From: an uncultured Candidatus Saccharibacteria bacterium
GTDB lineage: Bacteria > Patescibacteriota > Minisyncoccia > UBA6257 > 2-01-FULL-56-20
DNA: 64,000 bases
Assembly: GCA_965231155.1 (NCBI GenBank)
Contig: OZ246418.1
Location: 498,496 to 562,495, forward strand
Reading direction: 5' to 3'
The translations under genes were made by a program, and so were the position numbers. Shown in pieces: positions 26,035 through 51,785 of this stretch. The notes below the pieces were generated by a model. The model had not been told where the DNA came from, did no database searches, and saw nothing but the letters and a program-made list of their open reading frames with translations. How positions within the stretch are numbered: position 1 is the stretch's first letter; each line of letters starts with the position of its first letter.

Positions 26035-26116
26035 TGGAGACGTCGAAAATAAATAAATAAGTGGGAAAAGGGCGGTTTTTTTATTGCCTTATTTTTCTCC
26101 CTGCAGTAACAAAAAC

Positions 26117-27316: not shown

Positions 27317-27321
27317 CATCT

Positions 27322-38247: not shown

Positions 38248-38995
38248 AGAGCAGATAGAAGATATGGCGGTGGCGGGTCGGGAGCTTGGACGGATTCTGC
38301 AAGAGCTTCGAGTTATGGTTCGACCCGGATTATCTACTCAATTTTTTGAGGATGAGAGTCGTCGTCTGATTCGAGAGTCTGGTATGGAGCCAGCATTTCT
38401 TGGATATCAGCCAACTGGAGCGGCAGTGCCTTATCCAGCCGTACTGTGTATCGGCGTGAATGATGCGGTTGTACATACCACGCCATCGCGAGATCTCATT
38501 GTAAAAGAAGGTGATCTTCTCAAGCTTGACCTTGGGTTACGATACAAGGGATTGTGTGTCGATTCAGCGATTACGGTGGGGGTGGGTTCGATTGGTGTTG
38601 AAGCACAGCGTTTGATTGAGGTGACCGAAGAAGCGTTACGTCAGGCGATTCAGGTGGCGGTCGTAGGGAAGACGTTGGGAGATATTGGATACACTGTTGA
38701 ATCTTTCGTCGCTAGTGCTGGTTTTTCCGTCGTTCGCGATCTGACAGGACATGGCATTGGAGAAGTATTACACGAAGAGCCATCAGTATTTAATTTTGGT
38801 AAGCCAGGTCGGGGAATGGCTTTGCAGTCTGGAATGGTGATTGCCATAGAGCCGATTACCGCTGTTGGAAATGGACGGATTCGACAAGTCGCAGATGATA
38901 GCTATGTGACAACTGATAAGTCTTTGTCAGCTCATTTTGAGCATACGATCGCTATCACTGAAGGTGGGCCTCGTGTACTGACCGCCCCTTTTTAG
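38228..38995 (+). CDS. map: methionine aminopeptidase type I
   Basis: ORF track gives 38189. The ATG at 38228 (MPILKSKEQIEDMAVAGR...) overlaps the adk 3' end by 20 nt. MetAP metal-ligand blocks are present: VHTTPS, DLKLDLG...DSAITV, TGHGIGEVLHEEP, AIEPI, EHTIAIT. Confidence 0.85.
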   Translation: MPILKSKEQIEDMAVAGRELGRILQELRVMVRPGLSTQFFEDESRRLIRESGMEPAFLGYQPTGAAVPYPAVLCIGVNDAVVHTTPSRDLIVKEGDLLKLDLGLRYKGLCVDSAITVGVGSIGVEAQRLIEVTEEALRQAIQVAVVGKTLGDIGYTVESFVASAGFSVVRDLTGHGIGEVLHEEPSVFNFGKPGRGMALQSGMVIAIEPITAVGNGRIRQVADDSYVTTDKSLSAHFEHTIAITEGGPRVLTAPF

Positions 38996-39028
38996 GCTAA
39001 GTTGTTTTATAATGATAGGTACATACAG

Positions 39029-39754
39029 ATGTCTCACGAGCCACCTCTTTTATCTTTTGTTTTGCCGGTTCGCGATCAGTGTCGAGAACTGACACTTTTT
39101 ATTTTTAGTTTTTATCGTCACTTTGAATCTCGGAATGAAAGTTTTGAGCTTATCGTTATAGACGATGGCTCAAGGGATCAGACTTCTTTTGTAGTTGAGC
39201 GCTTGGCCCGTCAGTTTAAAACGATCAGCTTGATTACGCACCAACGACCGACTGGCTTAGGCGTAGCAGCTCGGGAGGGAATTTTAAAGAGTCGTGGTTC
39301 ACGGATTGTATTATTGCGTCCAAGCTTCTCTTTTCAGGTGCTTGATCAGTTATTAGAAGCTTCTCATTACCAGTCATTTTCTGGAGTGATACTTGGCCGT
39401 ATCTCGCCCTATTCCTCGCTTTGGCCACTGGCACTTTTCTTCCTGTACTCTTGGAAATTGTTTGATTGGCTTTTCAGGATGATTGTTCCGGGAGGCGTTT
39501 CGGCACGTTTCAGTCCGATTATCTTTTCTCGATCAGTTGGCGAGGAGGTAGCACGAGCCGGGCGGATAGCCCATGGAGGTTTTCAGTTTGAACTTATTTT
39601 CCTGGCCAGTCGTCGTCGAAGGGAAGTGACGCTAGTTCCTCTGACACAACCATTTCTAGTAGAGGCGTTGCCATTCTTTTACTTTTTAACAGTTACCAAG
39701 GAGCTTCTCCGAACTTATTTTCGTGAGTGGCGCCAACCGAAAGCGACTACGTAA
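39029..39754 (+). CDS. family 2 glycosyltransferase (DPM1/GtrB-like)
   Basis: ORF track starts at a TTG at 39002. The first in-frame ATG is at 39029 (MSHEPPLLSFVLPVRDQ...). The FELIVIDDGSRDQT DxD-type motif places it in family 2. Confidence 0.55.
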   Translation: MSHEPPLLSFVLPVRDQCRELTLFIFSFYRHFESRNESFELIVIDDGSRDQTSFVVERLARQFKTISLITHQRPTGLGVAAREGILKSRGSRIVLLRPSFSFQVLDQLLEASHYQSFSGVILGRISPYSSLWPLALFFLYSWKLFDWLFRMIVPGGVSARFSPIIFSRSVGEEVARAGRIAHGGFQFELIFLASRRRREVTLVPLTQPFLVEALPFFYFLTVTKELLRTYFREWRQPKATT

Positions 39755-39758
39755 TTTC

Positions 39759-40829
39759 ATGACGAAGCATCAAAAATCTTTTTTGACAGTAGATAGTTTT
39801 CCTGAGTTTGATGATCACGAAGAGATTGTTTTCTTCGCAGATAGAAAGACTGGTTTGCGGAGTTTTGTGTTTATTCATAGCACGGCACTTGGTCCCGCGA
39901 CGGGAGGAACCAGATATTTTAGCTATCGGACAGAAGCTGAGGCGCTGAGGGATGGTTTGCGTCTCTCGCGAGCGATGACCTATAAATGTGCTCTGGCCGA
40001 CGTTCCTTTTGGTGGTGGTAAAGGGGTGATCATTGCTGATTCTCGTGGGGTAAAATCCAAACAACTCATTCAATCGTATGCTCGTTATATTGATACTCTG
40101 AATGGTCGATATTCGACCGGTGAGGATGTCGGGTTGACTGAACATGATGTCAAAATCATGGAGGAGGTGACGCCTCATATTAACGGTCCCTCCAAGGTGG
40201 GGGATTTGAGTCCTTGGGCGGCTCTTGGTGTCTTCTCGGCGATGAAGGCAGGTTTACGAGAGGCATTTGGCTCCACTTCTTTTACTGGTCGAACGTTTGC
40301 TATTAAGGGCATAGGAAAAGTGGGTTCTCATCTTTTGGACCTTATTTATAATAGCGGAGGTATAGTTTCTATTGCTGATCTTGATACAACTAAGGTCAAT
40401 AAGCTTGCGAAAAGATACAAAGGAGTGCAGATAGTTCCTCCGCAAAATATTCATCGACAGAAGGTTGATGTGTATGCGCCATGTGCAATGGGGGATGAGT
40501 TTTCCACAAAGACGGTTTCCCAGTTGCGTTGTCGGGTTGTTTGCGGAGGAGCGAATAACCAGTTGGTTTCCATGGAAATTGGCGAGAGTCTTCATCGGAA
40601 AAATATTTTGTATATCCCTGATTATGTAGCCAATGCGGGAGGGCTTATTAATGCCGTGGCCCACCTGATGCCTGGTGGCTATAAAAAAGACTGGGTGGAA
40701 ATGAAGGTGAGGGCCATAGAGAAAATGACGACCTCGTTGATTCAATCTTCGAATCGAACCCATACACCAATGAATCGAGTGGCTGATACCCTGGCCCAGA
40801 AGATTGTTCAACGTAAGAAGAGGAGATAG
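39759..40829 (+). CDS. Glu/Leu/Phe/Val dehydrogenase-family amino-acid dehydrogenase (leucine-dehydrogenase-like size)
   Basis: ORF track gives 39723. The likely start is the ATG at 39759 (MTKHQKSF...). Catalytic ADVPFGGGKGVI motif, GIGKVGSHL NAD-binding Rossmann motif and VCGGANNQ are present. About 356 aa. Confidence 0.7.
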   Translation: MTKHQKSFLTVDSFPEFDDHEEIVFFADRKTGLRSFVFIHSTALGPATGGTRYFSYRTEAEALRDGLRLSRAMTYKCALADVPFGGGKGVIIADSRGVKSKQLIQSYARYIDTLNGRYSTGEDVGLTEHDVKIMEEVTPHINGPSKVGDLSPWAALGVFSAMKAGLREAFGSTSFTGRTFAIKGIGKVGSHLLDLIYNSGGIVSIADLDTTKVNKLAKRYKGVQIVPPQNIHRQKVDVYAPCAMGDEFSTKTVSQLRCRVVCGGANNQLVSMEIGESLHRKNILYIPDYVANAGGLINAVAHLMPGGYKKDWVEMKVRAIEKMTTSLIQSSNRTHTPMNRVADTLAQKIVQRKKRR

Positions 40830-40905
40830 TTGTTTTCTCAGTTTTATTTCTATGCAATGCTTGAAGGTAGAAAAATGCCTATTTTGAATATTACTTGTCC
40901 ACAGA

Positions 40906-40932
40906 TACTGTTGTCAACTATTGACAACAGTA
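40906..40932. promoter_or_regulatory. perfect 12-bp inverted repeat (tactgttgtcaa-cta-ttgacaacagta), candidate operator
   Basis: Exact palindrome with 3-nt spacer in the 200-nt spacer upstream of the 41030/41764 surface-protein genes. No U-tract follows, so it is not an intrinsic terminator. Confidence 0.3.
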
Positions 40933-41029
40933 GTAGGTACTCTAATCTAATACCAGGCACTTCGATAACTTCATATGAGTGAAGATAAGGAAGTGATACA
41001 ATCAAACCTAAGGAAGGAGAATTCGAACA

Positions 41030-41698
41030 ATGGGACAACACGAGAAGCAGAAACGATTTATTTTGATAGGTGTGCTGTCGTGCGCCTTGGTTCTTTGGGG
41101 AGCTATCTGGTATTTTGGGGCGTTCCCTCAGCTGGGGTCCCAAGAACAGGAGGTCTATCCAGAGTTAGTGGTGATCAATGAGGTTAGAGGTCCTCAACCA
41201 GGGGATCCCAGACCGAAACCACTTCCGGTGTTGCCGTTTGAGATTGACTGGCCGGCTTCGAGTACGATTGATCGAGAACTTTTCAGCTCTTTTTCTGAAG
41301 AGACTCGTCAAATGATAAGAAAATCTTCGGCACCGGTGCTATTACCTAGCACACCCAGGGCGCCTACTTCAACGCAGATTTCTTCTTTTGTGGGTGGTTA
41401 TGTTTTTGCTATAGACTACCCAGATATTCCGATTATTTCTCGTGTGATCAGTTCGGGTGAGGGTGGCGGAAAGGCACCGTCTACTCCATCTCCTTACATG
41501 CCTGACAGAATCAGGGGGTTACCGGCAGACATCGGAGAAACAGAAGGAGGTTGGTATGCAAACTGGAATGAATTCGGCGCTGCTTACTACCTCGAGATCC
41601 GTTGCTTCCGAGTGCCCAGAGACCCTCGATGCAGGAGCGATCAGTATCTTCGTTCTATCGTAGAGAATCTCCATTATGTTGGAGGGAAAGGAGAGTAG
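41030..41698 (+). CDS. hypothetical membrane-anchored protein (222 aa)
   Basis: N-terminal signal anchor (FILIGVLSCALVLWGAIWYF), then a Pro-rich linker and an uncharacterised domain. Immediately upstream of the giant peptidase gene. Confidence 0.45.
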   Translation: MGQHEKQKRFILIGVLSCALVLWGAIWYFGAFPQLGSQEQEVYPELVVINEVRGPQPGDPRPKPLPVLPFEIDWPASSTIDRELFSSFSEETRQMIRKSSAPVLLPSTPRAPTSTQISSFVGGYVFAIDYPDIPIISRVISSGEGGGKAPSTPSPYMPDRIRGLPADIGETEGGWYANWNEFGAAYYLEIRCFRVPRDPRCRSDQYLRSIVENLHYVGGKGE

Positions 41699-41763
41699 AA
41701 AATCTGGGGATTGATAGTAATTGTTTTTTCAACGCAACCCACAACCAGAGGAAGGAGTGAAGG

Positions 41764-44700
41764 ATGAACTTACAAAAGAAAGGAGGATTCCTCCTCCTGA
41801 TTTTTTTCGTTATTTGGTCGATTCCGGTCGAAGCAGAGTATTTTTCTTATGCATCTCCAGGGGATCTTATTCCTCAGAGCGGTGTAGGAAAAGTCGATTT
41901 TACTGTCCATGCACCGGGAATTCGTTTTCCGGTGGAGTTTGGACCGGTCTACGCTAACTCTCAAGTATGGCGGCCTGGTGGATATAGATATGGAGGAGGG
42001 AGTCCTAGTGATCCTTCCAACTTCAAGTATCCTTGGCAGGACAACTTTTGTGAGACCAGGGGAAGAGATTGGTCTACCCCCGAGTGTCCTAATCAGGATG
42101 GAGGGCATCACCAGGGTCAGGATAACCGTCCACCGACATATGTCGATAAGACTTACTGGGCGGTGGCCACCGCAGATGGGACTATTTCGTATGGTGCCAA
42201 CGACTATGTGGTTACCCTGACAACTCCTGGTAACAGTTCTGATAGTATAACTTATCGTTATATGCACCTTGATCCTTCAAGTATTGTAGTTGCAAACAAT
42301 GCCGTTGTGAGAAAGGGAGATCGGATAGGGAAGATATCAAATTGGTTTGGTGGGGAGTTAACAACTATCCACCTCCATTTCGATATCCAGAAGTTTGTCC
42401 CTTCAATAGGGAGAACTACTTGGGTATCTCCCTATATGTCCCTGGTGCGTTCATACGAGAGTTTGATTGGCTATCAGGGGTACACCATTAACACGTCCGT
42501 CAAGGTGACGGGTATAGGCACGGGCTTTTTGCCTGTCTATGGTTCGAGTGCCTGCGGATCGGTTATCGGTTACCGAGGGGAGACTTCGGTTGCTGTTGTT
42601 CTCGATGGTCCAGTCACCTGTGGCGGAGAAGTCCGCTGGAGAGTACGTTTTACGGACTGTCTTGAAGGATGGGTAAGCGGTGAGTGGCTTAAAGCTACTA
42701 ATTGCTTAGGAGCTCTTGTGAATCCAAGAGATGGAGCTTCGGTTAGTTTTCCGGCGCAGTTTACGAGTGGTTGGTCTGGGGATTGTCGTAATGCTACGTT
42801 GGCCTTCTCAAACGGCCAACAAGAAGTGGGATTTCCGATCCCTTCGTTCTACGATCAAACGATTTCGGAAAACTACTGGAATCAGAGTATCGTTCCTGTT
42901 ATTGGAAATGGTCCAACCTACAACTGGTCAGTTGGAGAGAACTTTTGCGGGAGTTTTTTTCCTAGAACTTCCTGGCAGAATTTTCAAAAGGTGTCTAGTT
43001 GTGTGTCTTTGGCAGCGCGGAGTGGTGGATTCGCCCGAGCGGCTAATCAGTGTGGTGGTGCAACGCCGACCTCGACGCCTATTCCGGCTATGACTTTCAC
43101 GCCAACGAGGACGTGGACGCCATTGCCTGGAGGATACTCACCAACACCAGTTCCGAGTCTGACTCAGATTCGGACGCCAACTAATACGCCATTTCCGACA
43201 CCGCCGCCAACGGCAACATCGCTTCCAGGCACACCAACGCCAACTGCCGGCTCGTTGATCTTTGTCGATAATTTCAATCGTCCAGATTCGACGGTGGCAG
43301 GGAACGGATGGAGTAATGTACATCCCTCGATTTTCGTGCAGGGGAATCGATTGGTTGGTTCGGGAATTATTACTCGCGACCTACCATTTAATTTTCCTAT
43401 TCGTATTAGGGGGCGTTTGATCGGTGGTGGTTGTGGTACAGCAGGAGGAGTGAGTGATCATTTCGATCATGAACTCAAGCTTTTTACCGACCAGTATGGT
43501 TCTGGCGGTTATGGACTGTACTTCTTCCGTCCTGATGAAACCCAGTTCAATTCCCAGATTGCTCTTCTTGATGGGAACATTATCACAGATCGAGTCTACT
43601 CTTTTCCACAGTTTGCGAATGGAGTGGATATCGATTTTTCAGTGTTCTCTGATGGAAGTGTTCGGGGTGTAGCAGGTAGTCAGGGCATAGACTTTCCTTT
43701 TGTATTTCCAGCAAGGGAGATGCAAAAGAGAGGTAATTTTTTTATGCTCCGGCTTCACTGGAACTGTCCCGAGAGATTTCTTGCTTGGGATGATTTAGTG
43801 GTAGAGGCAGTTGCTTTGCCAACTCCGTCTCCGGCTTGGAGTAGTGTGGCGACTATGACGGCAACTTGGACATCGGTGATGACTCCTACCAGCACATCTT
43901 TACCGACTATGACACCCACGGTGAGTTTCTTGCCAACAGTCACGCCGACGATGGTCAAAGGTGACTGTTGCACGGTTCACGATTCTCCGGGGTGTAATGT
44001 CCCAAGTTGTGAGGATTGGGTAAACTCTGTGATTAATCCGGGTGGGACTTCCATTTGTTTTCAGGTGGACGCATTAAATCCGGATTGGCGGGTGAGTTGC
44101 GTGAATGCTGCATTCCGTAATCCTCAGGCTTGTCCTTGTGCTCCGACATTCGCGCCAACTGCAACGACAACCTCAACGAGGACGCCGACGGAAACACCGG
44201 GAGGTGGTTGTTATCAGGTTCACGTTGGATCAGGGTGTGATGACGAGGAGTGTGAGGTAAAAGTGTGCGAAGCTGATTTTTCTTGTTGTGGTGGCGGTTC
44301 TAGTCCTCGTGGCTGGGATCAGTCGTGCGTGAATGCGGCAAACTTTTTTTGTAGGCCGACAAGCACGCCAACAGCGACAGCCACTGCATCTGTTACCGCG
44401 ACAGCAACAGCAACGGTGACTCTGACGCCGATTATTCTGCCAACGCCGACAGCTACAGAGATATCCTTAGAGATCCCTCTGTGTTCTTTTGAGCCGTTGG
44501 TTCATTGTATGGTTTTTGACCAGGCATCTCTTCGGATCAGAGAAACACGTGTGGGTATGAAAACCCTGTGGAGAGGTTCTCGTTATGGCGAAGGAGAGTC
44601 TCAGTCCCTTGGGAATCCTCTGTCTTCCACCAACTACGCCATCTGTCTTTATCAAGGAGAGTCTACATCTCTGGCTCTCGGTGGGACGGTTGAAGCTGGT

Positions 44701-44985
44701 CAGGGGTGGCGATTGCAGGGGAGTGGGTTCTCTTACTCATCTGATCTTAATCAGATGAAGCTGAGAATCTCCCTGAGTCATCACGTTCTCTCGGATCATT
44801 TCCTTGTTCGTCTTCGTGATCGAGAGGATCGAGTGGAGATTGATTCTGTGACTCCTCTTATCTTCCAGATTCAGAACTCCGAAGGAAGGTGTTGGAGTAG
44901 TACGTTCCAACCGCCTTTTCGGACGAGTGGTTCGTCAAAAACATCGGCTCTTTGTGAGACAAGAACGAGCCCTTGCTCTCCTTAG
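41764..44985 (+). CDS. giant secreted peptidoglycan hydrolase-like protein: N-terminal M23 (LytM) peptidase domain, SH3b-like domain, P/T linkers and two Cys-rich repeat modules
   Basis: Signal peptide. M23 pattern GGHHQGQDN...ADGTISYG...YRYMHL...VRKGDRIGKIS...TIHLHFDIQ (HxxxD ... HxH). YTINTSVKVTG...VIGYRGETSVAVVLDG...VRWRVRF...GWVSGEWL resembles a bacterial SH3 fold. Long TPTPT linkers and two related Cys-rich modules follow (around nt 43970-44160 and 44200-44350). Strong RBS (ggaaggagtgaagg) before the ATG. Confidence 0.5.
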   Translation: MNLQKKGGFLLLIFFVIWSIPVEAEYFSYASPGDLIPQSGVGKVDFTVHAPGIRFPVEFGPVYANSQVWRPGGYRYGGGSPSDPSNFKYPWQDNFCETRGRDWSTPECPNQDGGHHQGQDNRPPTYVDKTYWAVATADGTISYGANDYVVTLTTPGNSSDSITYRYMHLDPSSIVVANNAVVRKGDRIGKISNWFGGELTTIHLHFDIQKFVPSIGRTTWVSPYMSLVRSYESLIGYQGYTINTSVKVTGIGTGFLPVYGSSACGSVIGYRGETSVAVVLDGPVTCGGEVRWRVRFTDCLEGWVSGEWLKATNCLGALVNPRDGASVSFPAQFTSGWSGDCRNATLAFSNGQQEVGFPIPSFYDQTISENYWNQSIVPVIGNGPTYNWSVGENFCGSFFPRTSWQNFQKVSSCVSLAARSGGFARAANQCGGATPTSTPIPAMTFTPTRTWTPLPGGYSPTPVPSLTQIRTPTNTPFPTPPPTATSLPGTPTPTAGSLIFVDNFNRPDSTVAGNGWSNVHPSIFVQGNRLVGSGIITRDLPFNFPIRIRGRLIGGGCGTAGGVSDHFDHELKLFTDQYGSGGYGLYFFRPDETQFNSQIALLDGNIITDRVYSFPQFANGVDIDFSVFSDGSVRGVAGSQGIDFPFVFPAREMQKRGNFFMLRLHWNCPERFLAWDDLVVEAVALPTPSPAWSSVATMTATWTSVMTPTSTSLPTMTPTVSFLPTVTPTMVKGDCCTVHDSPGCNVPSCEDWVNSVINPGGTSICFQVDALNPDWRVSCVNAAFRNPQACPCAPTFAPTATTTSTRTPTETPGGGCYQVHVGSGCDDEECEVKVCEADFSCCGGGSSPRGWDQSCVNAANFFCRPTSTPTATATASVTATATATVTLTPIILPTPTATEISLEIPLCSFEPLVHCMVFDQASLRIRETRVGMKTLWRGSRYGEGESQSLGNPLSSTNYAICLYQGESTSLALGGTVEAGQGWRLQGSGFSYSSDLNQMKLRISLSHHVLSDHFLVRLRDREDRVEIDSVTPLIFQIQNSEGRCWSSTFQPPFRTSGSSKTSALCETRTSPCSP

Positions 44986-44988
44986 TGT

Positions 44989-45017
44989 ACACCTAGATTT
45001 TTTCTAGGTGTTTTTTT
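44989..45017 (+). terminator. rho-independent terminator
   Basis: acacctag-attttttt-ctaggtgt hairpin followed by ttttttt. Confidence 0.7.
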
Positions 45018-45132
45018 ATCTACTATTGACTAATTATGTTTAATATATTATAAACAAAACCAGCAAGCTCTGGAGGTCTGACTAGTCCGTGAGGGCCAGA
45101 AAGACAGGAGCTAATAATGAGGAGGGTGTCTT

Positions 45133-45579
45133 ATGACACGCATGATGGTTTGGATGGGGGCGTTGGTCGCCCTAGTGGTCTCGCTGGTTGGCTGTGGTCA
45201 ACCGCCTGCCGCGAAGCAGGCCGAAGATTTCAGCTTCCTCGATCGAACCTGGGGGGACGAAGAACAGGTCGAGCCGGACGGGATGCCGTTGGTAAGGCCG
45301 GCGATCTACAAGCCAGCTACCAAGAATCCGGCGGCGGGAGTTCGGAAGACGGTTCCCGCAGCGGAGACGTCGAACGAGTCCTGTGCTGAGTTTTTCCGCG
45401 TTGCCGGGAGGTTCGAACTCCCGGTCTATCTCGGCTTTGGTGCTCGTCCGGCCTACCGGACGACGCTTGCCGAAGCCAAACGGTTGGCGACCACCGTCGG
45501 AGCGCCACCCATGTTTATCCCGATCGGAGATGGGCACGGGGCGTTTCTGTGTTTCCCACCGGAAACCAAAGACGGGTAA
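45133..45579 (+). CDS. hypothetical lipoprotein (148 aa) in a compositionally foreign, high-GC segment
   Basis: Lipobox LVGC after a hydrophobic signal (MTRMMVWMGALVALVVSLVGCGQ). Local GC is around 60% against about 44% background; several overlapping ORFs in other frames are high-GC artefacts. Confidence 0.4.
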   Translation: MTRMMVWMGALVALVVSLVGCGQPPAAKQAEDFSFLDRTWGDEEQVEPDGMPLVRPAIYKPATKNPAAGVRKTVPAAETSNESCAEFFRVAGRFELPVYLGFGARPAYRTTLAEAKRLATTVGAPPMFIPIGDGHGAFLCFPPETKDG

Positions 45580-45628
45580 TGTCCTACAAAGGAGATGAGA
45601 GACTCCTCGAAAAAAAACTTCTCTCTCA

Positions 45629-45667
45629 GGACCCAACAGCATCTCGCTGTCTGGGTCCTTTTTCTTT
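45629..45667 (+). terminator. rho-independent terminator
   Basis: ggaccca-N16-tgggtcc hairpin followed by tttttcttt. Confidence 0.6.
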
Positions 45668-45674
45668 ATTATGG

Positions 45675-45703
45675 CATGCGGTTATTTGACACTAGGTGTA
45701 ATA
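45675..45703 (+). promoter_or_regulatory. sigma70-like promoter for rnpB (TTGACA-N17-AATAAT)
   Basis: TTGACA at 45675-45680, 17-nt spacer, AATAAT at 45698-45703. The predicted transcription start around 45710 coincides with the RNase P RNA P1 5' strand. Confidence 0.5.
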
Positions 45704-45709
45704 AATGAA

Positions 45710-46122
45710 ATAATAATTCAGGTCATTTAGACGACTACTCTTTGATTAAGAAATTAATTGAGGGGAGGAAAGTCGGGACACTCACTTGTTTCTCTTAAGA
45801 ACGATTAATCCTTAAGAGAGGTAAGTTAAAAAAGTAGCGGCTAACAGCCGTCATCCGCAAGGATCGAGGTGCGAGCAGAGACGTCTCTTTTCGAAAGGAG
45901 AGAGACTTCCATTCGGCTTGCTGAATGGAAGAGCTCTGATAGTAATATCGGAGGTGAAACGGCTAAATCCTTACTGAGTGCAAGGTCGTGTTCCCGCCTT
46001 TGGCGGGGAAGTGCCGCTCGAGCCTGGAAGTAATTTCAGGCCCAGATAAATGGTCGTCGTCCCGACTGCGTCGTTATTTACGAATGTTGTCGGGAGCACA
46101 GAATCCCGCTTATCGAATGACC
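45710..46122 (+). ncRNA. rnpB: RNase P RNA (bacterial type A-like)
   Basis: P4 5' strand GAGGGGAGGAAAGUCGGGACAC (consensus GAGGAAAGUCCGGGCUCC) and P4 3' strand CACAGAAUCCCGCUUAUCG (consensus ACAGAACCCGGCUUAUCG) co-vary, CGGGA pairing UCCCG. GGAGGUGAAACGGC matches the P10-P12 GGUGAAA region. P1 forms as GGTCATT (45710-45716) pairing AATGACC (46116-46122). An intrinsic terminator follows (46129-46152). Confidence 0.75.
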
Positions 46123-46128
46123 AAAAAA

Positions 46129-46152
46129 ACTCCACCGTAAGGCGGAGTTTTT
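46129..46152 (+). terminator. rho-independent terminator after rnpB
   Basis: actccaccg-taa-ggcggagttttt. Confidence 0.55.
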
Positions 46153-46171
46153 GTATCTTCGAAATTTCTTA

Positions 46172-46645
46172 TTAACTACGAATTTCTCCGTTTACTCGCT
46201 CAGAGACATTCAGACGGCGCATTAGATAGAGGACTCCAGCCAGAAGGACGGTGGCGGTCGCGGCAACTTCGATTAATCCCAGTCCGCAAAGGATACCAAT
46301 GGCAGCGGTCGTCCAGACAAAGGCGGCAGTGGTCAGTCCGTGAACGTGTTCGGTGGTTTTAATGATGATGCCAGCTCCGAGAAAACCGATACCAACAACG
46401 ATATTGCCAATGATACTAAGGAAGCCAGCGTTGGAAATCATCATCGCTTGAGCTAGTTCTGGAGTTGGTAAGAGAACATAAGGAATACTCAACGCTACCA
46501 GAGTGAAAAGGGCTGATCCACCGGAGACCAACATTTCCGTTCTGATGCCCGCTTCTTTGCCGGAGAGTTCTCGTTCGAGTCCCATTAATGATCCAAGAAT
46601 CATGGCTACTGCCAATCGTGCAATAATTTGTGAAAAAGTAAGCAT
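46172..46645 (-). CDS. MgtC/SapB-family membrane protein (N-terminal MgtC domain only)
   Basis: ORF track extends to 46849. The family N-terminus MLTFSQIIARLAVAMILGSLMGLERELSGKEAGIRT begins at the ATG 46645..46643. 157 aa, 4-5 TM segments. Confidence 0.6.
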   Translation of the reverse strand: MLTFSQIIARLAVAMILGSLMGLERELSGKEAGIRTEMLVSGGSALFTLVALSIPYVLLPTPELAQAMMISNAGFLSIIGNIVVGIGFLGAGIIIKTTEHVHGLTTAAFVWTTAAIGILCGLGLIEVAATATVLLAGVLYLMRRLNVSERVNGEIRS

Positions 46646-46668
46646 TGATTTAGTATAGTATAACATAA

Positions 46669-47982
46669 ATGCGTACACTGATCTCAGAAATTTCAGAAAG
46701 AGAGGGCCAGCGAGTGGAGATAAAAGGTTTTGTGCAGACCATTCGCGATCAAGGAAAGATCGTTTTTTTATTAGTGCGTGATCGCACTGGTTTGGTGCAG
46801 GTGGTTTCTGGGAAAGGTGAAGCGGAGGCCATGAAAATTGCCCAGTCACTGACGTTAGAGTCGGTGGTGGCGGTGAGGGGCTTAGCTAAAAAGGAAGCTC
46901 AGGCGCCGGGAGGGTATGAAGTAGTCGGTGAGGAGATCGAGATTCTTTCGTTGTCTCATCCAGAGTTGCCAATTCCTATTTTAGAGAAGGGAAATCAGGA
47001 AGAGGCTGACCAGCCTATTCGCCTCGACTGGCGTTGGCTCGATCTCCGCAAGCCACGCAACCTCCTCACTTTCCAGGCTTGGACGACTTTAGAGGAGGCG
47101 TTTCGGGATTACTGGGTGAAGAACGATTATATTGAGATTCATTCGCCGAAGTTGGTGGGTGCACCAAGTGAGTCTGGCGCCGAGGTTTTTGAAGTGAAAT
47201 ATTTTGATCGCAAAGCATATTTAGCTCAGTCGCCACAGTTTTATAAGCAGATGGCCATGGCCGGAGGTTTTGAAAAAGTATTTGAGGTCGGGCCAGTCTT
47301 TCGAGCGGAACCATCATTTACCTCTCGGCATGCCACCGAGTTTACTGGGTATGATGCCGAGTTTGCCTTCGTTGATTCTCATGGGGATGTAATGGCTGAA
47401 GAGGAGAAGGCGATTCAGCATGCCATCAAGGCAGTTGCTGAAAAGCACGGTGCCCAGATCGAAGCGGAGTTTGGGCGTAAAGTTATTGTGCCGACAGTGC
47501 CTTTCCCAAGAATTTCTATGAAGGAAGCCAAAAAGATTCTTGGAGAGATGGGTGTGTCAAGTGAAAAAGAAGGTGATCTCTCTCCAGAGGAGGAGCGAAA
47601 AATTTGTGAGTATGCTCTTAAGGAGTTGGGGCATGAATTTGTTTTTGTTACGGATTATCCGGTCAGTGTTCGACCGTTTTATCATATGCGCCACGAGGAT
47701 GATCCAACGCTCACGAAGAGCTTTGATCTTTTGTGGAATGGACTTGAGATTACGACCGGTGCTCAGCGTGAACACCGATATGACGTTTTGGTCAGTCAGG
47801 CGAAGGAGAAGGGAATGGATATCGCAAGTATCCAGTTCTATCTGAACTTCTTTAAATATGGTTGTCCGCCTCACGGTGGTTTTGGCATGGGGCCAAACCG
47901 GATGATTATGAAGTTGCTTGGCGTGGATAGTGTTCGTGAGGCGATGTTTTTGTATCGTGGGGTGAAGCGGTTGGAGCCGTAG
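46669..47982 (+). CDS. aspS: aspartate--tRNA ligase, archaeal/eukaryotic type (class IIb); AsnRS not excluded
   Basis: N-terminal OB fold (RVEIKGFVQTIRDQGKIVFLLVRD), motif 2 FEVGPVFRAEPSFTSRHATEF, motif 3 GGFGMGPNRMIM. At 437 aa it matches the short archaeal-type enzyme rather than the bacterial one of about 590 aa. Confidence 0.6.
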   Translation: MRTLISEISEREGQRVEIKGFVQTIRDQGKIVFLLVRDRTGLVQVVSGKGEAEAMKIAQSLTLESVVAVRGLAKKEAQAPGGYEVVGEEIEILSLSHPELPIPILEKGNQEEADQPIRLDWRWLDLRKPRNLLTFQAWTTLEEAFRDYWVKNDYIEIHSPKLVGAPSESGAEVFEVKYFDRKAYLAQSPQFYKQMAMAGGFEKVFEVGPVFRAEPSFTSRHATEFTGYDAEFAFVDSHGDVMAEEEKAIQHAIKAVAEKHGAQIEAEFGRKVIVPTVPFPRISMKEAKKILGEMGVSSEKEGDLSPEEERKICEYALKELGHEFVFVTDYPVSVRPFYHMRHEDDPTLTKSFDLLWNGLEITTGAQREHRYDVLVSQAKEKGMDIASIQFYLNFFKYGCPPHGGFGMGPNRMIMKLLGVDSVREAMFLYRGVKRLEP

Positions 47983-48066
47983 AGATTAGTTGACGCGGAC
48001 TAAGGCGATGACGTAGCATTGAGACTCAAGAGAATAGTTTTATTAAATTTAATTAAAAATCTACAC

Positions 48067-48678
48067 ATGGCAGATACACATCCAAAACAAGAAAGAACAT
48101 TTATTATCATTAAACCAGATGGCGTTCAGCGTTCATTGGTAGGGGAGATTATCGGTCGTTTTGAGCGCGTCGGTTTGAAACTTGTGGCAATGAAGACACA
48201 GGTGCCGTCAGCCGAAATGGTCCGCCAGCATTATCTTTTGGATCCAGAATGGATTAGGAAGGTGGGCGAGAAATCTATTGAGGGTTACAAAAAGAAAGGC
48301 TTGGTGCCACCATCGGAAGATCCAATTCAGTTGGGCGAGAAGGTTATTGAGGTTTTAGCGAAATATCTGACCAGCGGTCCAGGTGTATTTATGGTGTGGC
48401 AGGGAGCGCATGCTGTTGGTGTGGTCAGAAAATTAGTCGGTGGTACGGAGCCATTATCTTCGGATGTAGGGACTATTCGTGGGGATTTTGTGTTGGATTC
48501 ATACCAGATGGCTGATCGAGATGGTCGGGCAATTCGTAATTTGATCCATGCATCCGGCAGTGTTGAAGAAGCAGAGAATGAAATTCCTCACTGGTTCAAG
48601 AGCGAAGAACTGATTGATTACAATCTTGTGGGTGAGAAGATTCTGTATGATGTTAATTTGGACGGCATCATCGAATAG
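48067..48678 (+). CDS. ndk: nucleoside diphosphate kinase with a roughly 50-aa insertion
   Basis: ORF track gives 48019. The ATG at 48067 gives MADTHPKQERTFIIIKPDGVQR. Active-site NLIHASGSVEEAENEI is present. About 50 extra residues lie between the N-terminal core and GPGVFMVWQG, relative to the typical 140-aa Ndk. Confidence 0.75.
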   Translation: MADTHPKQERTFIIIKPDGVQRSLVGEIIGRFERVGLKLVAMKTQVPSAEMVRQHYLLDPEWIRKVGEKSIEGYKKKGLVPPSEDPIQLGEKVIEVLAKYLTSGPGVFMVWQGAHAVGVVRKLVGGTEPLSSDVGTIRGDFVLDSYQMADRDGRAIRNLIHASGSVEEAENEIPHWFKSEELIDYNLVGEKILYDVNLDGIIE

Positions 48679-48718
48679 CTCATTTTTGCGTGTTGGTGGT
48701 GTGGTACAATAGAAAGCG

Positions 48719-49852
48719 GTGATTTCTATAAATCCTTTTGATCGGCGAGAAAAGTTTTTCGTTCTTTTAATTGCGCCCGAGAGGATCAGCGCTATCTTAT
48801 TCGCGGTAACAAGGGATCGTTCCATTAGTTGTGAGAAGTTTTGGCCGGAGTTTACGATCCAACAGAGTCATCGGTGGTGGCCGAAAACTTTTCCTTACTG
48901 GAATGTGATTGTGGCTGTCTCACCTCATCTTGCGTATACCGCCGATATTCCGTTGCATCTACAGCGAGAAGGGTCGTCACACGGACCATTGTCATTTTCT
49001 CAGTTAGATAATTTGCTCGGTCGGGCCATGAACCAGGAGTTCATGGCTTATCGGAAGGTGGCGGGTAAGGCGTTACAGGTATCTGATCTTGATATTGTGC
49101 TTGCTGATAGCCGGATTGCTGACTTTCGAATGGATGGTCATAAAGTACATAGTCCGATGGGATCTCGAGCTAAGACTATTGAGGCGCTTATCTCTATGAC
49201 CTTTGTGCGTCGAGATGTGTATGAGTCGTTAAGGGCCTTGTCCCGAAGATCCCGTTTTTTCTTTACAAGTCTTGATCGAGCTCAGCTGATTGCGCTTGGA
49301 AAGGTGTATGAACCGCCGTTTTCTCTGGCGCTCTTAGAATCGCCACGTTCTTCCATTTTCCGTATGAGTGGAACTGCTACCGGGAATCAGATTGATCGTC
49401 ATGAGATCGCCTGGTCGGCTAAGGAGTTTCTGCAGGTTTTTATGGATACTTGGGGAGTGAACGAGGAGATTGCTCGGGATCTTTATCATTTGTACCAAAA
49501 AAAGGAACTACCCGAAGTTATCCAGCAATCTATTACTAAAGAATTTACACGTATTACTGATCGACTAGAAAAGCTTCTCGGAGCGCACTCTCATAAATCA
49601 AAAATTTTAATGACGAGTCAGGAAGAGGTACTGCCAACTTCTTCACACTTGGCGCTGGAGCGAGTTTCCCTTGCTTCTATTCTAGAAAAAATGGGATTCA
49701 CCACCGAGGAGATGATCTGGCCAGTAAAAGAGTATGAACAATTTTCTTACTGCGCACCACTTCTTGAGTTTTTTTCGGATCAGGGCAGTCAGGAGGTGAA
49801 TCGTTGGTTGCGTCGACGACTTCACTGGTTGGGTTCAATGAACTATACTTAA
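48719..49852 (+). CDS. hypothetical cytoplasmic protein (377 aa)
   Basis: No motifs recognised. Weak, unverified resemblance of FFVLLIAPERISAILFAV...DLDIVLAD to actin-like ATPase (FtsA/PilM) strand motifs. Confidence 0.4.
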   Translation: MISINPFDRREKFFVLLIAPERISAILFAVTRDRSISCEKFWPEFTIQQSHRWWPKTFPYWNVIVAVSPHLAYTADIPLHLQREGSSHGPLSFSQLDNLLGRAMNQEFMAYRKVAGKALQVSDLDIVLADSRIADFRMDGHKVHSPMGSRAKTIEALISMTFVRRDVYESLRALSRRSRFFFTSLDRAQLIALGKVYEPPFSLALLESPRSSIFRMSGTATGNQIDRHEIAWSAKEFLQVFMDTWGVNEEIARDLYHLYQKKELPEVIQQSITKEFTRITDRLEKLLGAHSHKSKILMTSQEEVLPTSSHLALERVSLASILEKMGFTTEEMIWPVKEYEQFSYCAPLLEFFSDQGSQEVNRWLRRRLHWLGSMNYT

Positions 49853-49857
49853 TAGGT

Positions 49858-51501
49858 ATGTTAAAAATATTTGTTGATAAAAAAGATACAGTCTCTGTTC
49901 TGGCTGGAAAGATTGCACGAGCTTCTGGTGATAAAGTGACGTTGGTGATTCCTCGTGGTTCAAAATTGGGGGAGGCAAATCACTTATCGCTTCTCAAGAA
50001 GCATGCTGATGAGGCCGAAAAGACGTTAGTTATTGAATCAATCGACGAGCATATTTTAGAACTTGCGGAGAGACACGAGATGGAACGGGTTCATCCGCTT
50101 TTTGAGGGTAGCAGCGAAAAACGGCAGACTTTTTCTGATATTCGTTCACATAAAACCCAGAAAATTACCGAAAAGTCCATGGAGGTAGAGAAAGAGGATG
50201 ACGAGGTGGAGGAGGAAGATGTTGATGAAGAGGTTGAGGAGGTGGAGGAGGAGAGGCCAAGGCGTTTCGCCCGTTTTCGTCGTCGACCAAGACAGGAACA
50301 AGAGGCGTATGTCTATGCCGAAGATGAAGATTCTGTTGATGAGGACGAAGAAGCGCCCTCGCATAGGACGAGATATGTCGTGGGGGGAGTGGTGGTTTTC
50401 TTCGTTGTCGTCGGTTTGGTGCTCTGGGGAGTTGGTAGTGCATTCGGCCGTGTTGATGTTGCTGTGACTCTCAAGAAGACACCGTGGCAGTCAACTACCA
50501 CTGTGTCTGCCGATAAATCTCTCAGTTCGTTACGGACTGGAGGTACGACGGTACCTGCGATGCTTTTTACAGAAAAGAAGAATACCGCACAGATTTTTAA
50601 AGCCTCAGGAAGGAAGCAGACCAGCCAGAAAGCGACAGCGAAGGTCACTATTTACAATGGATATGATTCTTCGCCCCAGACCCTGGTGGCGACTACTCGT
50701 CTAGCCACTCCCGATGGCAAGATTTTCCGTCTTGATAGTCGAGTGGTTGTTCCTGGTGCAAAGTTGGCCAATGGGAAGATTACTCCAGCAGGAATCGAGG
50801 CGACTGTCACTGCTGATCAGCCCGGCAAAGAGTACAATATTGGTCCATTCGAGAAGATGACTATCCTTGGTTTCAAGGGAACTCCTAAATATGACGGTTT
50901 TTATGCAACGATGAAGGAGAAAGCGACTGGTGGTTTGATTGGTGAGGCACCATTCCCCACAGACGAAGATATTGCTAAAGCCGAAGAGAAAACCAAGGAG
51001 ACATTGCGATCAGCTCTGGATATTAATATCCGTCGACGTATCCCCGAAGAGTTCAAGATTCTTAAAGATGCTTCGTCATTACAGATATTGAAGATGACTG
51101 TGAATAAAATAACAGATGATCAGGGAAATTTTGGAGTACTTGGCGAGGGGCAGTTATCAGTTATTGCCTTCAAGGAGGCTGATGTTCAGACTGTTCTTGA
51201 GGGGATTATGAAGGGAGAACAACCGGAACTTACATTCCGTAGTCTAACTCTTGCGTATGATGGTACTCGGACGGATTTTGCGAATGGGAAGATGAGTTTT
51301 ACAGTGAAAGCTGATGCGGTGCTGACGAGCCCCTTTAATTCTGATACGGTGAAAGGACAGATAGCCGGTAAGGGAGTTGATGATGCTCGGGCGTATCTTG
51401 GTCGTCTGACTGGCCTGGAATCGGCAAAAATTGGCATCTGGCCACCCTGGCTTTGGTCCCTTCCCCAGAATATGAGTCGGATTACTATCGTTGTGCAGTA
51501 G
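49858..51501 (+). CDS. hypothetical bitopic membrane protein with poly-acidic segment (about 548 aa)
   Basis: ORF track gives 49804. The ATG at 49858 follows the upstream stop. Cytoplasmic N-domain, an E/D-rich low-complexity stretch (EVEKEDDEVEEEDVDEEVEEVEEE), one TM helix (VVGGVVVFFVVVGLVLWGV), and a large extracytoplasmic C-domain. Confidence 0.4.
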   Translation: MLKIFVDKKDTVSVLAGKIARASGDKVTLVIPRGSKLGEANHLSLLKKHADEAEKTLVIESIDEHILELAERHEMERVHPLFEGSSEKRQTFSDIRSHKTQKITEKSMEVEKEDDEVEEEDVDEEVEEVEEERPRRFARFRRRPRQEQEAYVYAEDEDSVDEDEEAPSHRTRYVVGGVVVFFVVVGLVLWGVGSAFGRVDVAVTLKKTPWQSTTTVSADKSLSSLRTGGTTVPAMLFTEKKNTAQIFKASGRKQTSQKATAKVTIYNGYDSSPQTLVATTRLATPDGKIFRLDSRVVVPGAKLANGKITPAGIEATVTADQPGKEYNIGPFEKMTILGFKGTPKYDGFYATMKEKATGGLIGEAPFPTDEDIAKAEEKTKETLRSALDINIRRRIPEEFKILKDASSLQILKMTVNKITDDQGNFGVLGEGQLSVIAFKEADVQTVLEGIMKGEQPELTFRSLTLAYDGTRTDFANGKMSFTVKADAVLTSPFNSDTVKGQIAGKGVDDARAYLGRLTGLESAKIGIWPPWLWSLPQNMSRITIVVQ

Positions 51502-51563
51502 GAGGATGGGGGAGAGTTGACAGTCAGGGGATGATGCGGTTATAATCTCTGGACTGTTTACAG

Positions 51564-51785
51564 ATGGTTTCTAATTCACAAGAGGCTCGTCCCGAGAGAG
51601 GAAAGGTGGAGGAGGCCCTACCAGGGCTTTCTTTCCGAGTTAGACTTTTTGATCACGATCGAGAGGTCATTGCTTATCTTGCGGGAAAATTAAAACTGCA
51701 CCACATTAAAGTGTTGCCAGGTGACGAGGTACTTATGGAAATGTCTCCGGACGGCCATCGAGGCAGAATTGTAAGAAGGCTTTAA
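51564..51785 (+). CDS. infA: translation initiation factor IF-1
   Basis: S1-like OB fold. GKVEEALPGLSFRVRLFDHDREVIAYLAGKLKLHHIKVLPGDEVLMEMSPDGHRGRIVRRL aligns to IF-1. Confidence 0.85.
   Translation: MVSNSQEARPERGKVEEALPGLSFRVRLFDHDREVIAYLAGKLKLHHIKVLPGDEVLMEMSPDGHRGRIVRRL

Follow-up and report, generated by a model that had tools for sequence, protein, structure and literature searches.

The strongest compositional outlier in the 64-kb window analyzed here, by which we mean the whole stretch of DNA under study, is a GC-rich gene encoding a protein of 148 aa. We propose that this is probably a resident, fast-evolving gene for a membrane-anchored surface protein, located in a slot that is exchanged by recombination and in which high GC is actively maintained. 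The slot is fixed in layout, running from a giant M23-like gene through a terminator, promoter, 5'UTR hairpin, coding sequence (CDS), and 3' element with terminator to rnpB. The coding part would be exchanged by homologous recombination between members of the clade, with the untranslated regions (UTRs) as arms, and two deeply divergent forms appear to be distributed incongruently with the phylogeny of the flanks. The protein may also be exposed on the surface and subject to selection, either diversifying or balancing, for example where an episymbiont interacts with its host or with phages.

Results

A GC-rich coding sequence beside rnpB

The ORF has a GC content of 61.5%, against 45.4% for the window (63.8, 51.7, and 69.1% at the three codon positions), and is the GC maximum among all 447-nt windows (mean 45.4%, sd 3.1%); the runner-up non-overlapping maximum is 54.4%. 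Relative to the 61 other long ORFs of the window, it has a z of 7.2 for total GC and 5.1 for GC3 (0.69 versus 0.43 ± 0.05). The raised GC is limited to about 45051 to 45575, and GC skew is modest (0.03 to 0.25). The encoded protein is enriched in GARP and depleted in FYMINK. The composition anomaly of the original prediction is therefore confirmed in size and place, and the shadow ORFs that it described are present, on both strands.

The 148-aa frame is the coding frame because differences between the window and its closest homologue (locus L002) fall 9, 15, and 39 times at the three codon positions, each of the three indels has a length divisible by 3, and the dN/dS ratio is 0.20. It is extremely improbable that the true gene is instead a 156-aa antisense ORF (45172 to 45642, minus strand), or that the block is non-coding. 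This long antisense ORF is open in the window, L002, and a second locus, L093; open antisense frames are, however, expected in GC-rich DNA, and it is the plus strand that carries the promoter, Shine-Dalgarno sequence, signal peptide, and terminator. The antisense ORF is ruled out as a real gene because substitutions concentrate at third codon positions of the sense frame, where the antisense frame has its first positions, and because its frame is broken in a third locus, L083 (98/193 codons open).

In all four loci, the slot is bounded on its 5' side by the M23-like gene, with syntenic homologues in L002, L083, and L093. The 1073-aa product has PT-rich linkers and Cys-rich modules, and its PF01551 match (E 1.3e-5, 25.7 bits) is slightly under the cutoff. 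The 3' side is rnpB, as originally predicted: a full-length match to RF00010 (model positions 1 to 367, E 1.5e-26, 86.8 bits) that contains the conserved GGAAAGUC and ACAGAA cores and is also detected in L002 and L083. Lineage-specific insertions keep it below 100 bits, the gathering score set by Rfam, which is why the default scan does not list it. Other neighbors in the window are MgtC and AspRS.

Table 1. Features of the locus, in coordinates of the window.
Feature	Position	Strand	Basis
M23-peptidase-like giant secreted protein, 1073 aa, upstream neighbor	41764..44985	+	PF01551 (Pfam)
Intrinsic terminator of M23-like gene	44989..45018	+	Scan: 9-bp stem and T-run
Predicted cassette gene promoter, TTGACT (45026-45031), 17 nt, TATAAA (45049-45054)	45026..45054	+	Read from sequence
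5'UTR hairpin, putative 5' homology arm	45066..45112	+	Fold and conservation
Exchangeable cassette (putative), approximate extent	45114..45587	+	L002/L093 replaced tract, mapped by alignment
Shine-Dalgarno GGAGGG, 6 nt ahead of ATG at 45133	45121..45126	+	Sequence
GC-rich CDS, type A allele, 148-aa predicted prolipoprotein	45133..45579	+	Composition, alignment, lipobox
Near-invariant 3' element AGGAGATGAGAGACTCCTCGA-(A7 or TTCCAAAA)-CTTCTCTCTCAGG, putative 3' homology arm	45590..45630	+	Four-locus alignment
Intrinsic terminator of cassette gene	45629..45667	+	Fold in context -30 kcal/mol, z -4.0
rnpB promoter, TTGACA, 17 nt, (TG)AATAAT	45686..45714	+	Scan, 11/12 matches; conserved in relatives
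rnpB, RNase P RNA, bacterial type A, lineage-specific insertions; 3' side of slot	45719..46128	+	RF00010

The gene is predicted to be transcribed independently, from its own promoter and with its own 5'UTR hairpin, Shine-Dalgarno sequence, and terminator (Table 1). Both promoter hexamers are unchanged in all four loci; the promoter scan demands a T at position 6 of the -10 hexamer, so this promoter is not in its list. The 5'UTR (45055 to 45140) folds at -25.6 kcal/mol (z -1.7). Its hairpin is near-identical in the window, L002, and L093, and is shorter in L083, where it stands on the same GC[UC]C...G[AG]GC base. The ATG aligns with the same start in L002.

Both bracketing terminators that had been predicted are real. 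The terminator of the M23-like gene (44989 to 45011 plus T-run) folds at -13.2 kcal/mol (z -4.3), with compensatory T>C and A>G changes in L002 and L093. That of the GC-rich gene (45629 to 45658 plus TTTTTCTTT; z -4.0) has a 12-bp stem with one bulge and was missed by the terminator scan; it is conserved in relatives, including L083, where the stem is kept with a different sequence (pairing judged by eye). Just upstream, the four loci share the 3' element letter for letter outside a short linker; this includes L083, although its CDS has about 33% identity to that of the window. It occurs once in the 64 kb and has possible GGAG/CUCC and GAGAGA/UCUCUC pairings, which may form a pseudoknot.

A predicted membrane-anchored extracytoplasmic protein

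Signals of bacterial lipoprotein precursors, the substrates of Lgt and LspA, are of the PROSITE PS51257 type and have K or R within the first 7 residues, then an uncharged h-region and [LVI][ASTVI][GAS]-C, with the Cys at 15 to 35. The 148-aa protein, which begins MTRMMVWMGALVALVVSLVGC followed by GQ, shows this pattern throughout: R3 in MTRMMVW..., an h-region at residues 9 to 17 (GALVALVVS) with no D, E, R, or K in 11 to 16 (checked by hand), and the canonical LVGC lipobox of the original prediction (L18-V19-G20-C21). The L002 homologue has R3, K4, and R6 and an LAGC lipobox with Cys20. The signal peptide is followed by an acidic, Pro-rich linker with FxFLD and EPDGMP motifs and by a C-terminal alpha/beta domain of ~65 aa with two Cys. 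The product is thus predicted to be a small membrane-anchored extracytoplasmic protein.

Searches of Pfam, NCBIfam, PHROGs, and PDB sequences returned matches at the level of the signal peptide only. One of these is a weak likeness to the LPS-translocon maturation lipoprotein LptM, which is confined to the lipoprotein signal peptide (residues 1 to 23) and scores below threshold (10.7 versus 27.3 bits for PF13627; 15.3 versus 27.7 bits for NF047847); the mature part of the protein has no similarity, and the protein is therefore not a member. AlphaFold2 models reached a mean pLDDT of 42 with two sequences and 49 with four, the C-terminal domain of the latter scoring 55 to 74 per 10-residue block. 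A Foldseek search of the PDB with the model gave no meaningful match (best E 0.17).

An orphan family with uniform GC

The family has four members in a collection of ~15 billion proteins, covered by two word-prefiltered searches (5.8e9 clusters, 90% identity) and one exhaustive HMMER search (1.84e9 representatives, 50% identity). Three of the four, which group as two related pairs, were recovered from metagenome assemblies. The only extra HMMER matches of the type A profile among the 1.84e9 representatives, P0005 (arthropod cuticle-like repeats) and P0006 (a fish Ig-repeat receptor), are false positives whose scores are summed over repeats.

All four members occupy the same slot. The L002 homologue is 84% identical to the window protein and has a GC of 61.8%; that of L083 has a GC of 62.8% and a GC3 of 77% in a contig of 45.8% GC; and that of L093 has a GC of 60.7% on a 2.8-kb contig. 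Across the four loci, the gene has 61 to 63% GC and 69 to 77% GC3, against 45 to 51% GC for the contigs (the upper value, for L093, includes the cassette itself). The genomes themselves are placed at 45 to 48% GC.

The members fall into two forms, which are about 33% identical (31 to 34% aa) and align end to end at the protein level. Type A (window and L002) has the lipobox Cys; type B (L083 and L093) has an uncleaved-looking transmembrane (TM) helix and no lipobox. Membrane anchoring therefore appears to be conserved between the types, while lipidation does not.

The family appears to be an orphan that does not extend beyond a single narrow subclade of low-GC Patescibacteria (CPR). The GTDB genomes nearest by AspRS (at most 73% identity), some of which have 58 to 59% GC (L003, L006), keep MgtC-AspRS-NDK and do not keep the slot. 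Relatives at 75 to 82% AspRS identity (L084 to L087 and L094 to L096) also lack the M23/cassette/rnpB arrangement; in L084 to L087, the M23 side is missing entirely and RNase H abuts rnpB. A scan of JGI metagenomes with a 20-mer of the 3' element gave five matches in which similarity ends at the 20-mer, and these are chance matches, as is the single match in viral contigs. A protein-pattern scan of the viral contigs found no family member.

Apparent exchange of the coding part between conserved flanks

A swap of the coding part is seen between L002 and L093. In a blastn comparison of L093 with L002, positions 1 to 1494 are 98.1% identical and positions 2070 to 2795 are 99.0% identical, while 1495 to 2069 are unaligned. 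The C terminus of the M23-like protein has a dS of 0.04 and 98% aa identity between the two, against 33% aa identity for the cassette. The replaced tract is clean, consisting of the CDS plus about 7 to 20 nt on each side, and its position in the window coincides with the main GC-rich block. The 5'UTR hairpin was left in place by the swap, and the C terminus of the M23-like gene, a separate transcription unit, is unchanged.

Among the window, L002, and L093, the arms on the 5' and 3' sides are 88 to 96% identical, and all four loci have the invariant 3' element of 42 nt. Because the replaced tract ends inside these conserved UTR elements, homologous recombination with the UTRs as arms is the most economical mechanism. 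Thus, the coding part appears to be swapped as a cassette between conserved UTR arms. No recombinase or strong GC skew was seen, and the 64-kb window holds no second or silent cassette copy. The block was also examined for a template repeat, a pair of attC-like sites, and a duplicated target site; as none was found, diversity-generating retroelement (DGR), integron, and transposon mechanisms were rejected.

The L093 allele groups with that of L083 (62% aa identity), its best match among the sampled genomes, and its donor is unsampled; the M23 C terminus of L093 is only 43% identical to that of L083. The allele phylogeny thus appears incongruent with that of the flanks, and L093 could be a strain chimera. 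A chimera could have arisen between co-occurring strains that share a 45-nt stretch of the 5'UTR and the 42-nt 3' element. Even then, L093 would carry a type B allele on a long 5'UTR hairpin that is absent in L083, which is still incongruent. Furthermore, divergence between cassettes of the same type is lower than that of their flanks (dS 0.44 versus 0.8 to 1.3 in one pair; 1.38 versus 2.43 in the other).

Origin and proposed maintenance of high GC

The original prediction read the composition shift as a sign that the gene had recently been acquired horizontally from a high-GC donor. The GC, GC3, and codon usage do resemble those of a gene from a genome of roughly 60 to 62% GC, the distribution is that of an orphan, and 58 to 59% GC genomes (L003, L006) are among the AspRS-nearest GTDB relatives. 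Against this, the gene is present at the same locus, and equally GC-rich, in L002, L083, and L093, a pattern that the original prediction itself had named as one that would refute it. The search for a donor homologue found none beyond the four clade members in the protein collection (5.8e9 clusters, 1.84e9 representatives) and none in viral contigs. There are no mobility genes, integrase, att sites, or flanking direct repeats around the block; the gene has a native promoter, UTRs, and terminator, all of them conserved; and L003 has no M23/cassette/rnpB arrangement. The syntenic GC-rich homologues refute recent import in its simple form, and we consider it very unlikely that the window genome recently acquired a gene that has not yet ameliorated. 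What stands of the lateral-transfer idea is that the slot seems to be replaced laterally, within the low-GC clade and via conserved flanks; the high-GC donor is not supported.

Import could also be recurrent: a high-GC reservoir outside the present sampling, such as a sister lineage, plasmid, or phage with the same UTR arms, would reseed the slot again and again. Each resident copy would then be young, and no GC-maintaining force would be needed. The youth of same-type cassettes relative to their flanks, the clean swap between the near-identical L002 and L093 genomes, and the lack of a sampled donor for L093 all speak for this scenario. It is nevertheless improbable: the breakpoints lie in UTR elements known from low-GC genomes only, so that a donor must share them; all four carriers are low-GC; and nothing was found in viral contigs, JGI metagenomes, or the 1.84e9 protein representatives.

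Another possibility is that this is an Lpp-like lipoprotein gene expressed at a very high level, which owes its high GC3 to translational selection. The gene has a strong promoter, Shine-Dalgarno sequence, and terminator, and EF-Tu and S10 have the highest GC3 among the other ORFs (0.54 to 0.59). The cassettes, however, shun the codons preferred by EF-Tu and ribosomal protein genes and use those that these genes avoid: they are enriched in CGG, GGG, CCG, GCG, and ACG and depleted in the favored CGT, GGT, CCA, and ACT. Under the usage of the highly expressed set, their log-likelihood per codon is -1.38 to -1.42, compared with -1.08 for the highly expressed genes themselves. Since cassette codons are opposite to those of highly expressed genes, translational selection does not explain the GC; codon usage rules it out, and we regard it as having almost no chance of being the cause. 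Under general-gene usage, the values are -1.30 to -1.36, about as low as or lower than the poorest-scoring of the 60 other genes in the window (minimum -1.305), which confirms that codon usage is atypical.

Selection on the transcript is a further alternative that we rate as quite unlikely; the mRNA would be highly structured and very stable, or the RNA would have a dual function beside rnpB. The native CDSs fold better than synonymous-codon shuffles at all four loci (z -1.6, -3.5, -2.8, and -2.9), while 14 low-GC window genes give a z of only -0.38 ± 0.73. The 5' hairpin, strong terminator, and invariant 3' element would fit such a role, as would the reduced synonymous divergence. GC-matched control genes also have negative values, however (mean z -1.23, sd 1.26, minimum -5.2), and the excess over them is weak (rank test p about 0.02, ignoring the non-independence of the two pairs). 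Moreover, the GC-rich block has no Rfam match, its protein-coding signature is clear, and types A and B have no nucleotide similarity able to carry a common structure.

Neighboring genes of the window and L083 are saturated (pS 0.74 to 0.83). High GC has been kept across lineages with saturated synonymous sites in housekeeping genes, and it is therefore better read as maintained than as the fading footprint of an import. In the reading we prefer, that of a resident, exchanged gene, GC would be held high by a recombination-linked force, which may be GC-biased gene conversion (gBGC) at a recombination hot spot or, alternatively, selection for GC-rich DNA or mRNA at an exchanged locus, as argued for Borrelia vls.

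A more specific proposal, which we hold to be possible though doubtful, is a vls-like system in which a locus-specific, recombination-linked process holds the cassette ~16 GC points (26 to 34 points in GC3) above the genome. Such a process might be GC-biased gene conversion of extreme strength, or GC-rich DNA might be selected because it is recombinogenic, and the 3' element and 5' hairpin might be dedicated exchange arms. A GC3 excess of +26 to +34 points is far beyond the usual effects of gBGC in bacteria.

Discussion

Atypical GC is routinely read as recent horizontal transfer, and the cassette gene is a clean counterexample. It also offers a natural test of whether biased gene conversion or selection can keep a gene far from the compositional equilibrium of its genome. 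In addition, it encodes a candidate variable surface protein, next to the giant secreted protein of M23-like type. Almost nothing is known of the cell-surface and host-interaction factors of uncultured episymbiotic Patescibacteria. The surface role is one that we infer wholly from sequence.

The gene resembles horizontally acquired ORFans and genomic islets in its atypical GC, GC3, and codons and in having homologues in a narrow clade only. It differs in keeping the same composition and site in relatives with saturated dS, in its native regulatory flanks, and in having no mobility signature.

Borrelia ospC, the staphylococcal agr groups, and the streptococcal pherotype loci are cases of divergent alleles between conserved flanks that are exchanged by homologous recombination. 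The cassette shares with them its conserved flanks, alleles diverged beyond the genome, and an incongruent allele phylogeny. These loci are not known to be compositional outliers. Furthermore, the two cassette forms differ in their anchor (lipobox or TM helix), and they belong to an orphan family of the CPR.

In recombining bacterial genes, Lassalle et al. (2015, PMC4450053) found a gain of non-optimal GC-ending codons and ascribed it to GC-biased gene conversion. The cassette likewise recombines, is rich in non-optimal GC-ending codons, and is poor in optimal AU-ending codons. It departs from such genes in the size of its GC3 excess and in the confinement of this excess to a tract of roughly 475 nt with sharp edges.

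The vls cassettes of Borrelia, which serve the antigenic variation of a surface lipoprotein, have about 49% GC in genomes of 28.6% GC, a feature that is conserved across species and has been attributed to the recombination process (PMC11499132). In the Borrelia system, silent cassettes lie alongside in an array, conversion is segmental and runs in one direction, and the coding strand has G-runs and a strong GC skew of about 0.52. The window locus, in contrast, has no silent copy within 64 kb and the modest skew given above; exchange appears to involve whole-CDS alleles and to take place between genomes, and the two systems are not homologous in sequence. What the locus has in common with vlsE/vls is a predicted surface lipoprotein gene, a variable region with GC far above that of the genome, and recombination between conserved boundaries. 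If borne out, a vls-like variation system of this kind would be one so far undescribed in Patescibacteria.

A GC-rich protein-coding gene beside rnpB

On the plus strand, the slot between the gene for a giant M23-like protein and rnpB holds an open reading frame, here called the cassette ORF, that encodes a protein. Relative to its closest homologue, in the related contig L002 (84% amino acid identity), it shows 9/15/39 differences at codon positions 1, 2, and 3, each of the three indels has a length divisible by 3, and dN/dS equals 0.20. The antisense strand also has a 156-aa ORF, which is a shadow ORF: its third positions fall on the least variable sense positions and its frame is broken in L083, another related contig.

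The original prediction described a compositionally anomalous gene, bracketed by terminators, next to rnpB. We confirm the anomaly: the ORF has a GC content of 61.5% (63.8/51.7/69.1% for the first, second, and third codon positions) versus 45.4% for the whole window. Of all 447-nt windows (mean 45.4%, sd 3.1%), none is richer in GC than this block, the second independent peak reaches 54.4%, and the ORF stands apart from 61 other long ORFs in total GC (z=7.2) and GC3 (z=5.1). Both terminators were also recovered, the upstream one by scan and fold, and the downstream one, which has a bulged stem and was missed by the scan, by fold. The RF00010 match establishes rnpB as the neighbor; its score (86.8 bits) is under the Rfam gathering score of 100, and it is therefore missed by a default Rfam scan.

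Features of the cassette locus and its surroundings (window coordinates)
Feature	Position	Strand	Details
EF-Tu and S10	26084-27648		GC3 0.54-0.59
Superoperon interruption, map-infA	~38189-51785		about 12.5 kb
Giant M23-like secreted protein	41764-44985		1073 aa
Upstream intrinsic terminator	44989-45011 + T-run	+	terminator scan; fold z -4.3
Promoter, TTGACT-17-TATAAA	45026-45054	+	sequence
5'UTR hairpin	45066-45112	+	fold
SD, GGAGGG	6 nt 5' of ATG	+	sequence
Cassette ORF	45133-45579	+	148 aa; N-terminus MTRMMVWMGALVALVVSLVGC/GQ
3' element, 42 nt	45590-45630	+	between stop codon and terminator
Downstream terminator	45629-45667	+	bulged 12-bp stem; strong fold
rnpB (RNase P RNA)	45719-46128		RF00010, E 1.5e-26, full model length
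MgtC, gene callers	46172-46645	-	157 aa
MgtC, mechanical ORF	46172-46849	-	225 aa from GTG
AspRS	46669-47982	+	

The 42-nt 3' element occurs once within the window and is invariant in all four loci that carry the gene, although the L083 coding sequence has diverged to ~33% identity. It is a possible H-type pseudoknot; GGAG/CUCC and GAGAGA/UCUCUC pairings can be drawn, and the element has no Rfam match. At the downstream terminator, L083 keeps a stem of differing sequence (judged by eye, pairs not counted).

Genomic neighborhood

The nearest named AspRS relatives of the window, which lies on a contig of ~808 kb, are Patescibacteria (labels Minisyncoccia, Sungbacteria, and Jorgensenbacteria), with AspRS identity to GTDB species representatives of ≤73%. 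The ribosomal-protein superoperon is split between map and infA by a gene block that includes the cassette locus: GT2, glutamate-dehydrogenase-like, hypothetical, M23 giant, cassette, rnpB, MgtC (-), AspRS, NDK, and two hypotheticals. L083 has the same arrangement; in L084, a further relative, the stretch from rnpB to infA recurs, but what lies upstream of it differs. Features of the M23-like protein are a weak M23 domain close to its N-terminus, PT-rich linkers, and Cys-rich modules, and its C-terminal third is fast-evolving (61% amino acid identity to L002, versus 96% for AspRS).

Only MgtC-AspRS-NDK is kept in the neighborhood out to relatives with 73-77% AspRS identity. The mechanical MgtC ORF overlaps the AspRS start by ~180 nt; the gene callers' version is shorter, and thus there is no overlap. 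Among the ordinary genes, whose mean GC3 is 0.43, EF-Tu and S10 rank highest. The loci of L003 and L006, which by AspRS (70-73% identity) are closest to the window in GTDB, have 58-59% GC versus 45-48% in the window clade; there has thus been a substantial shift of genomic GC in this part of the Patescibacteria.

The rnpB genes of L002 and L093, a third related contig, have a common ~290-nt insertion (L002 ~4720-5010; L093 ~2300-2590) at a point inside rnpB homologous to near window 45838; the window rnpB is without it. Its ends are an ~18-nt inverted repeat (GACCCCGTCTCAGAAATA ... TATTTCTGAGACGGGGTC), it has no Rfam match, and it may represent an intron-like or MITE-like element. L083 and L084 each have a ~60-nt module of similar sequence (...GGCG[GA]GATGCTCAAAATTGTA...ACAATTTT...), which lies near the 5' end of rnpB in L083 (~8520-8600) and in the 3' half in L084 (~8470-8620). 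This differing placement suggests that helices of CPR RNase P RNA are mobile or have been independently expanded. Because of insertions, all rnpB genes score below Rfam's gathering threshold.

Homologues in the same slot

The anomaly had been attributed to recent import from a high-GC donor. This is not supported: equally GC-rich homologues occupy the same slot in L002, L083, and L093, which is the finding that the original prediction had named as refuting it. L002 is fully syntenic with the window (80-84% nucleotide identity along its length), and L083, whose AspRS is 83% identical to the window's, has the same M23/ORF/rnpB order. The L083 protein has an N-terminal TM helix and no lipobox, yet can be aligned to the window protein over the full length (pairwise E-value 6e-7 over 96 residues), sharing the motifs FxF[LA]D, EEPDG[LM]P, AIY[KH]P, Y.G...R..Y, and A[KR]RL. 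The comparative evidence is thin, comprising four sequences in two related pairs.

Cassette genes in the slot
Locus	Source	Protein	Type	Cassette GC/GC3	Contig GC
Window	NCBI + Logan	148 aa, lipobox	A	61.5%/69%	45.4%
L002	Logan SRR30597361	144 aa, lipobox	A	61.8%/70%	47.7%
L083	Logan SRR28842991	192 aa from MAQRR, TM helix	B	62.8%/77%	45.8%
L093	Logan SRR29305604	182 aa, TM helix	B	60.7%/73%	50.9% (2.8-kb contig; includes cassette)

The cassette proteins form an orphan family. With word prefiltering, 5.8e9 protein clusters yielded only the cassette gene itself and one other entry, P0002. When 1.84e9 representatives were searched exhaustively with HMMER, the only additional matches were two eukaryotic false positives with repeat-driven scores. 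Including the L083 protein in the profile brought in P0127 and P0126, the latter being the L083 protein itself. Pfam, NCBIfam, PHROGs, PDB, and fold searches returned nothing. The AF2 model is weak, with pLDDT of ~55-74 (10-residue blocks) only in the C-terminal ~65 aa, a predicted alpha/beta domain.

Exchange of the coding sequence

Around the slot, L002 and L093 are almost one and the same genome. Their M23 C-termini have 98.3% nucleotide identity (dS 0.04), and their 3'UTR and rnpB, including the ~290-nt insertion, are 99% identical. L002 nonetheless carries type A and L093 type B, with 33% amino acid identity between them. In blastn, L093 aligns to L002 at 1-1494 (98.1%) and 2070-2795 (99.0%), and the intervening part is unaligned; the replaced tract is thus the CDS plus ~7-20 nt per side (window ~45114-45587). 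This tract coincides with the main GC-rich block, and the breakpoints lie in the conserved 5'UTR directly past the hairpin and in the 42-nt 3' element.

The L093 allele is nearest to that of L083 (62% amino acid identity), while the M23 C-termini of these two contigs are only 43% identical. Same-type cassettes are less diverged than their own flanks in both pairs (type A, dS 0.44 versus 0.8-1.3; type B, 1.38 versus 2.43). In principle, the short L093 contig might be a strain chimera joined via shared arms. However, even if it is chimeric, its type B allele stands on a long 5' hairpin absent from L083 and would stay incongruent with the flank phylogeny. The coding part of the slot is thus best read as an exchangeable cassette.

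The original prediction is supported in part: the composition does look foreign and the slot does undergo lateral replacement, but recent import from a high-GC donor lacks support.

Putative function

We infer that, in each form, a short acidic/proline-rich tether and a small alpha/beta domain lie on the external side of the membrane. Our reading is that this is a putative variable protein exposed at the surface, which would be subject to diversifying or balancing selection and may act in interaction with host, phage, or neighbors. A role as M23-related partner or immunity protein is a weaker alternative. The gene always follows the giant secreted M23-like gene, but is a separate transcription unit, and the cassette type has been swapped without change in the M23 C-terminus. 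The locus would be a clade-restricted form of a surface-protein locus exchanged by recombination.

Possible causes of the high GC

The GC anomaly of the locus is unusually large and persistent. Between the window and L083, synonymous sites of housekeeping neighbors are saturated (pS 0.74-0.83). In a gene resident since this split, a neutral GC3 excess would not have survived: by a rough two-state estimate, even GC3 that began at 95% would be down to about 0.6. Therefore, either GC is actively maintained or the copies are repeatedly renewed.

Translational selection for high GC3 is excluded by codon usage. EF-Tu and r-protein genes favor CGT, GGT, CCA, and ACT and avoid CGG, GGG, and AGG; cassette preferences are the reverse, and the general codon table describes the cassettes better than the one for highly expressed genes. 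Cassette proteins have GARP of 0.32-0.39 (versus 0.27±0.04) and FYMINK of 0.18-0.20 (versus 0.27±0.03): GC pressure acts at the nucleotide level and also shapes the proteins. mRNA structure is a weak candidate for the cause. Native cassette CDSs form more stable folds than their synonymous shuffles do (z -1.6 to -3.5; low-GC window genes, mean z -0.38), but GC-rich control genes are likewise negative (mean z -1.23, sd 1.26).

The cassette GC effect is far larger than that known for GC-biased gene conversion in bacteria. The codon pattern matches that of recombining bacterial genes, in which non-optimal GC-ending codons are increased and optimal AU-ending codons decreased, a pattern attributed to GC-biased gene conversion (PMC4450053). 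Silent cassettes and strong GC skew, both present in Borrelia vls, were looked for in the window and not found. The vls cassette region, a recombination-driven surface-lipoprotein gene with about 49% GC versus 28.6% for the genome (PMC11499132), is nevertheless a precedent for a cassette gene kept far above genomic GC.
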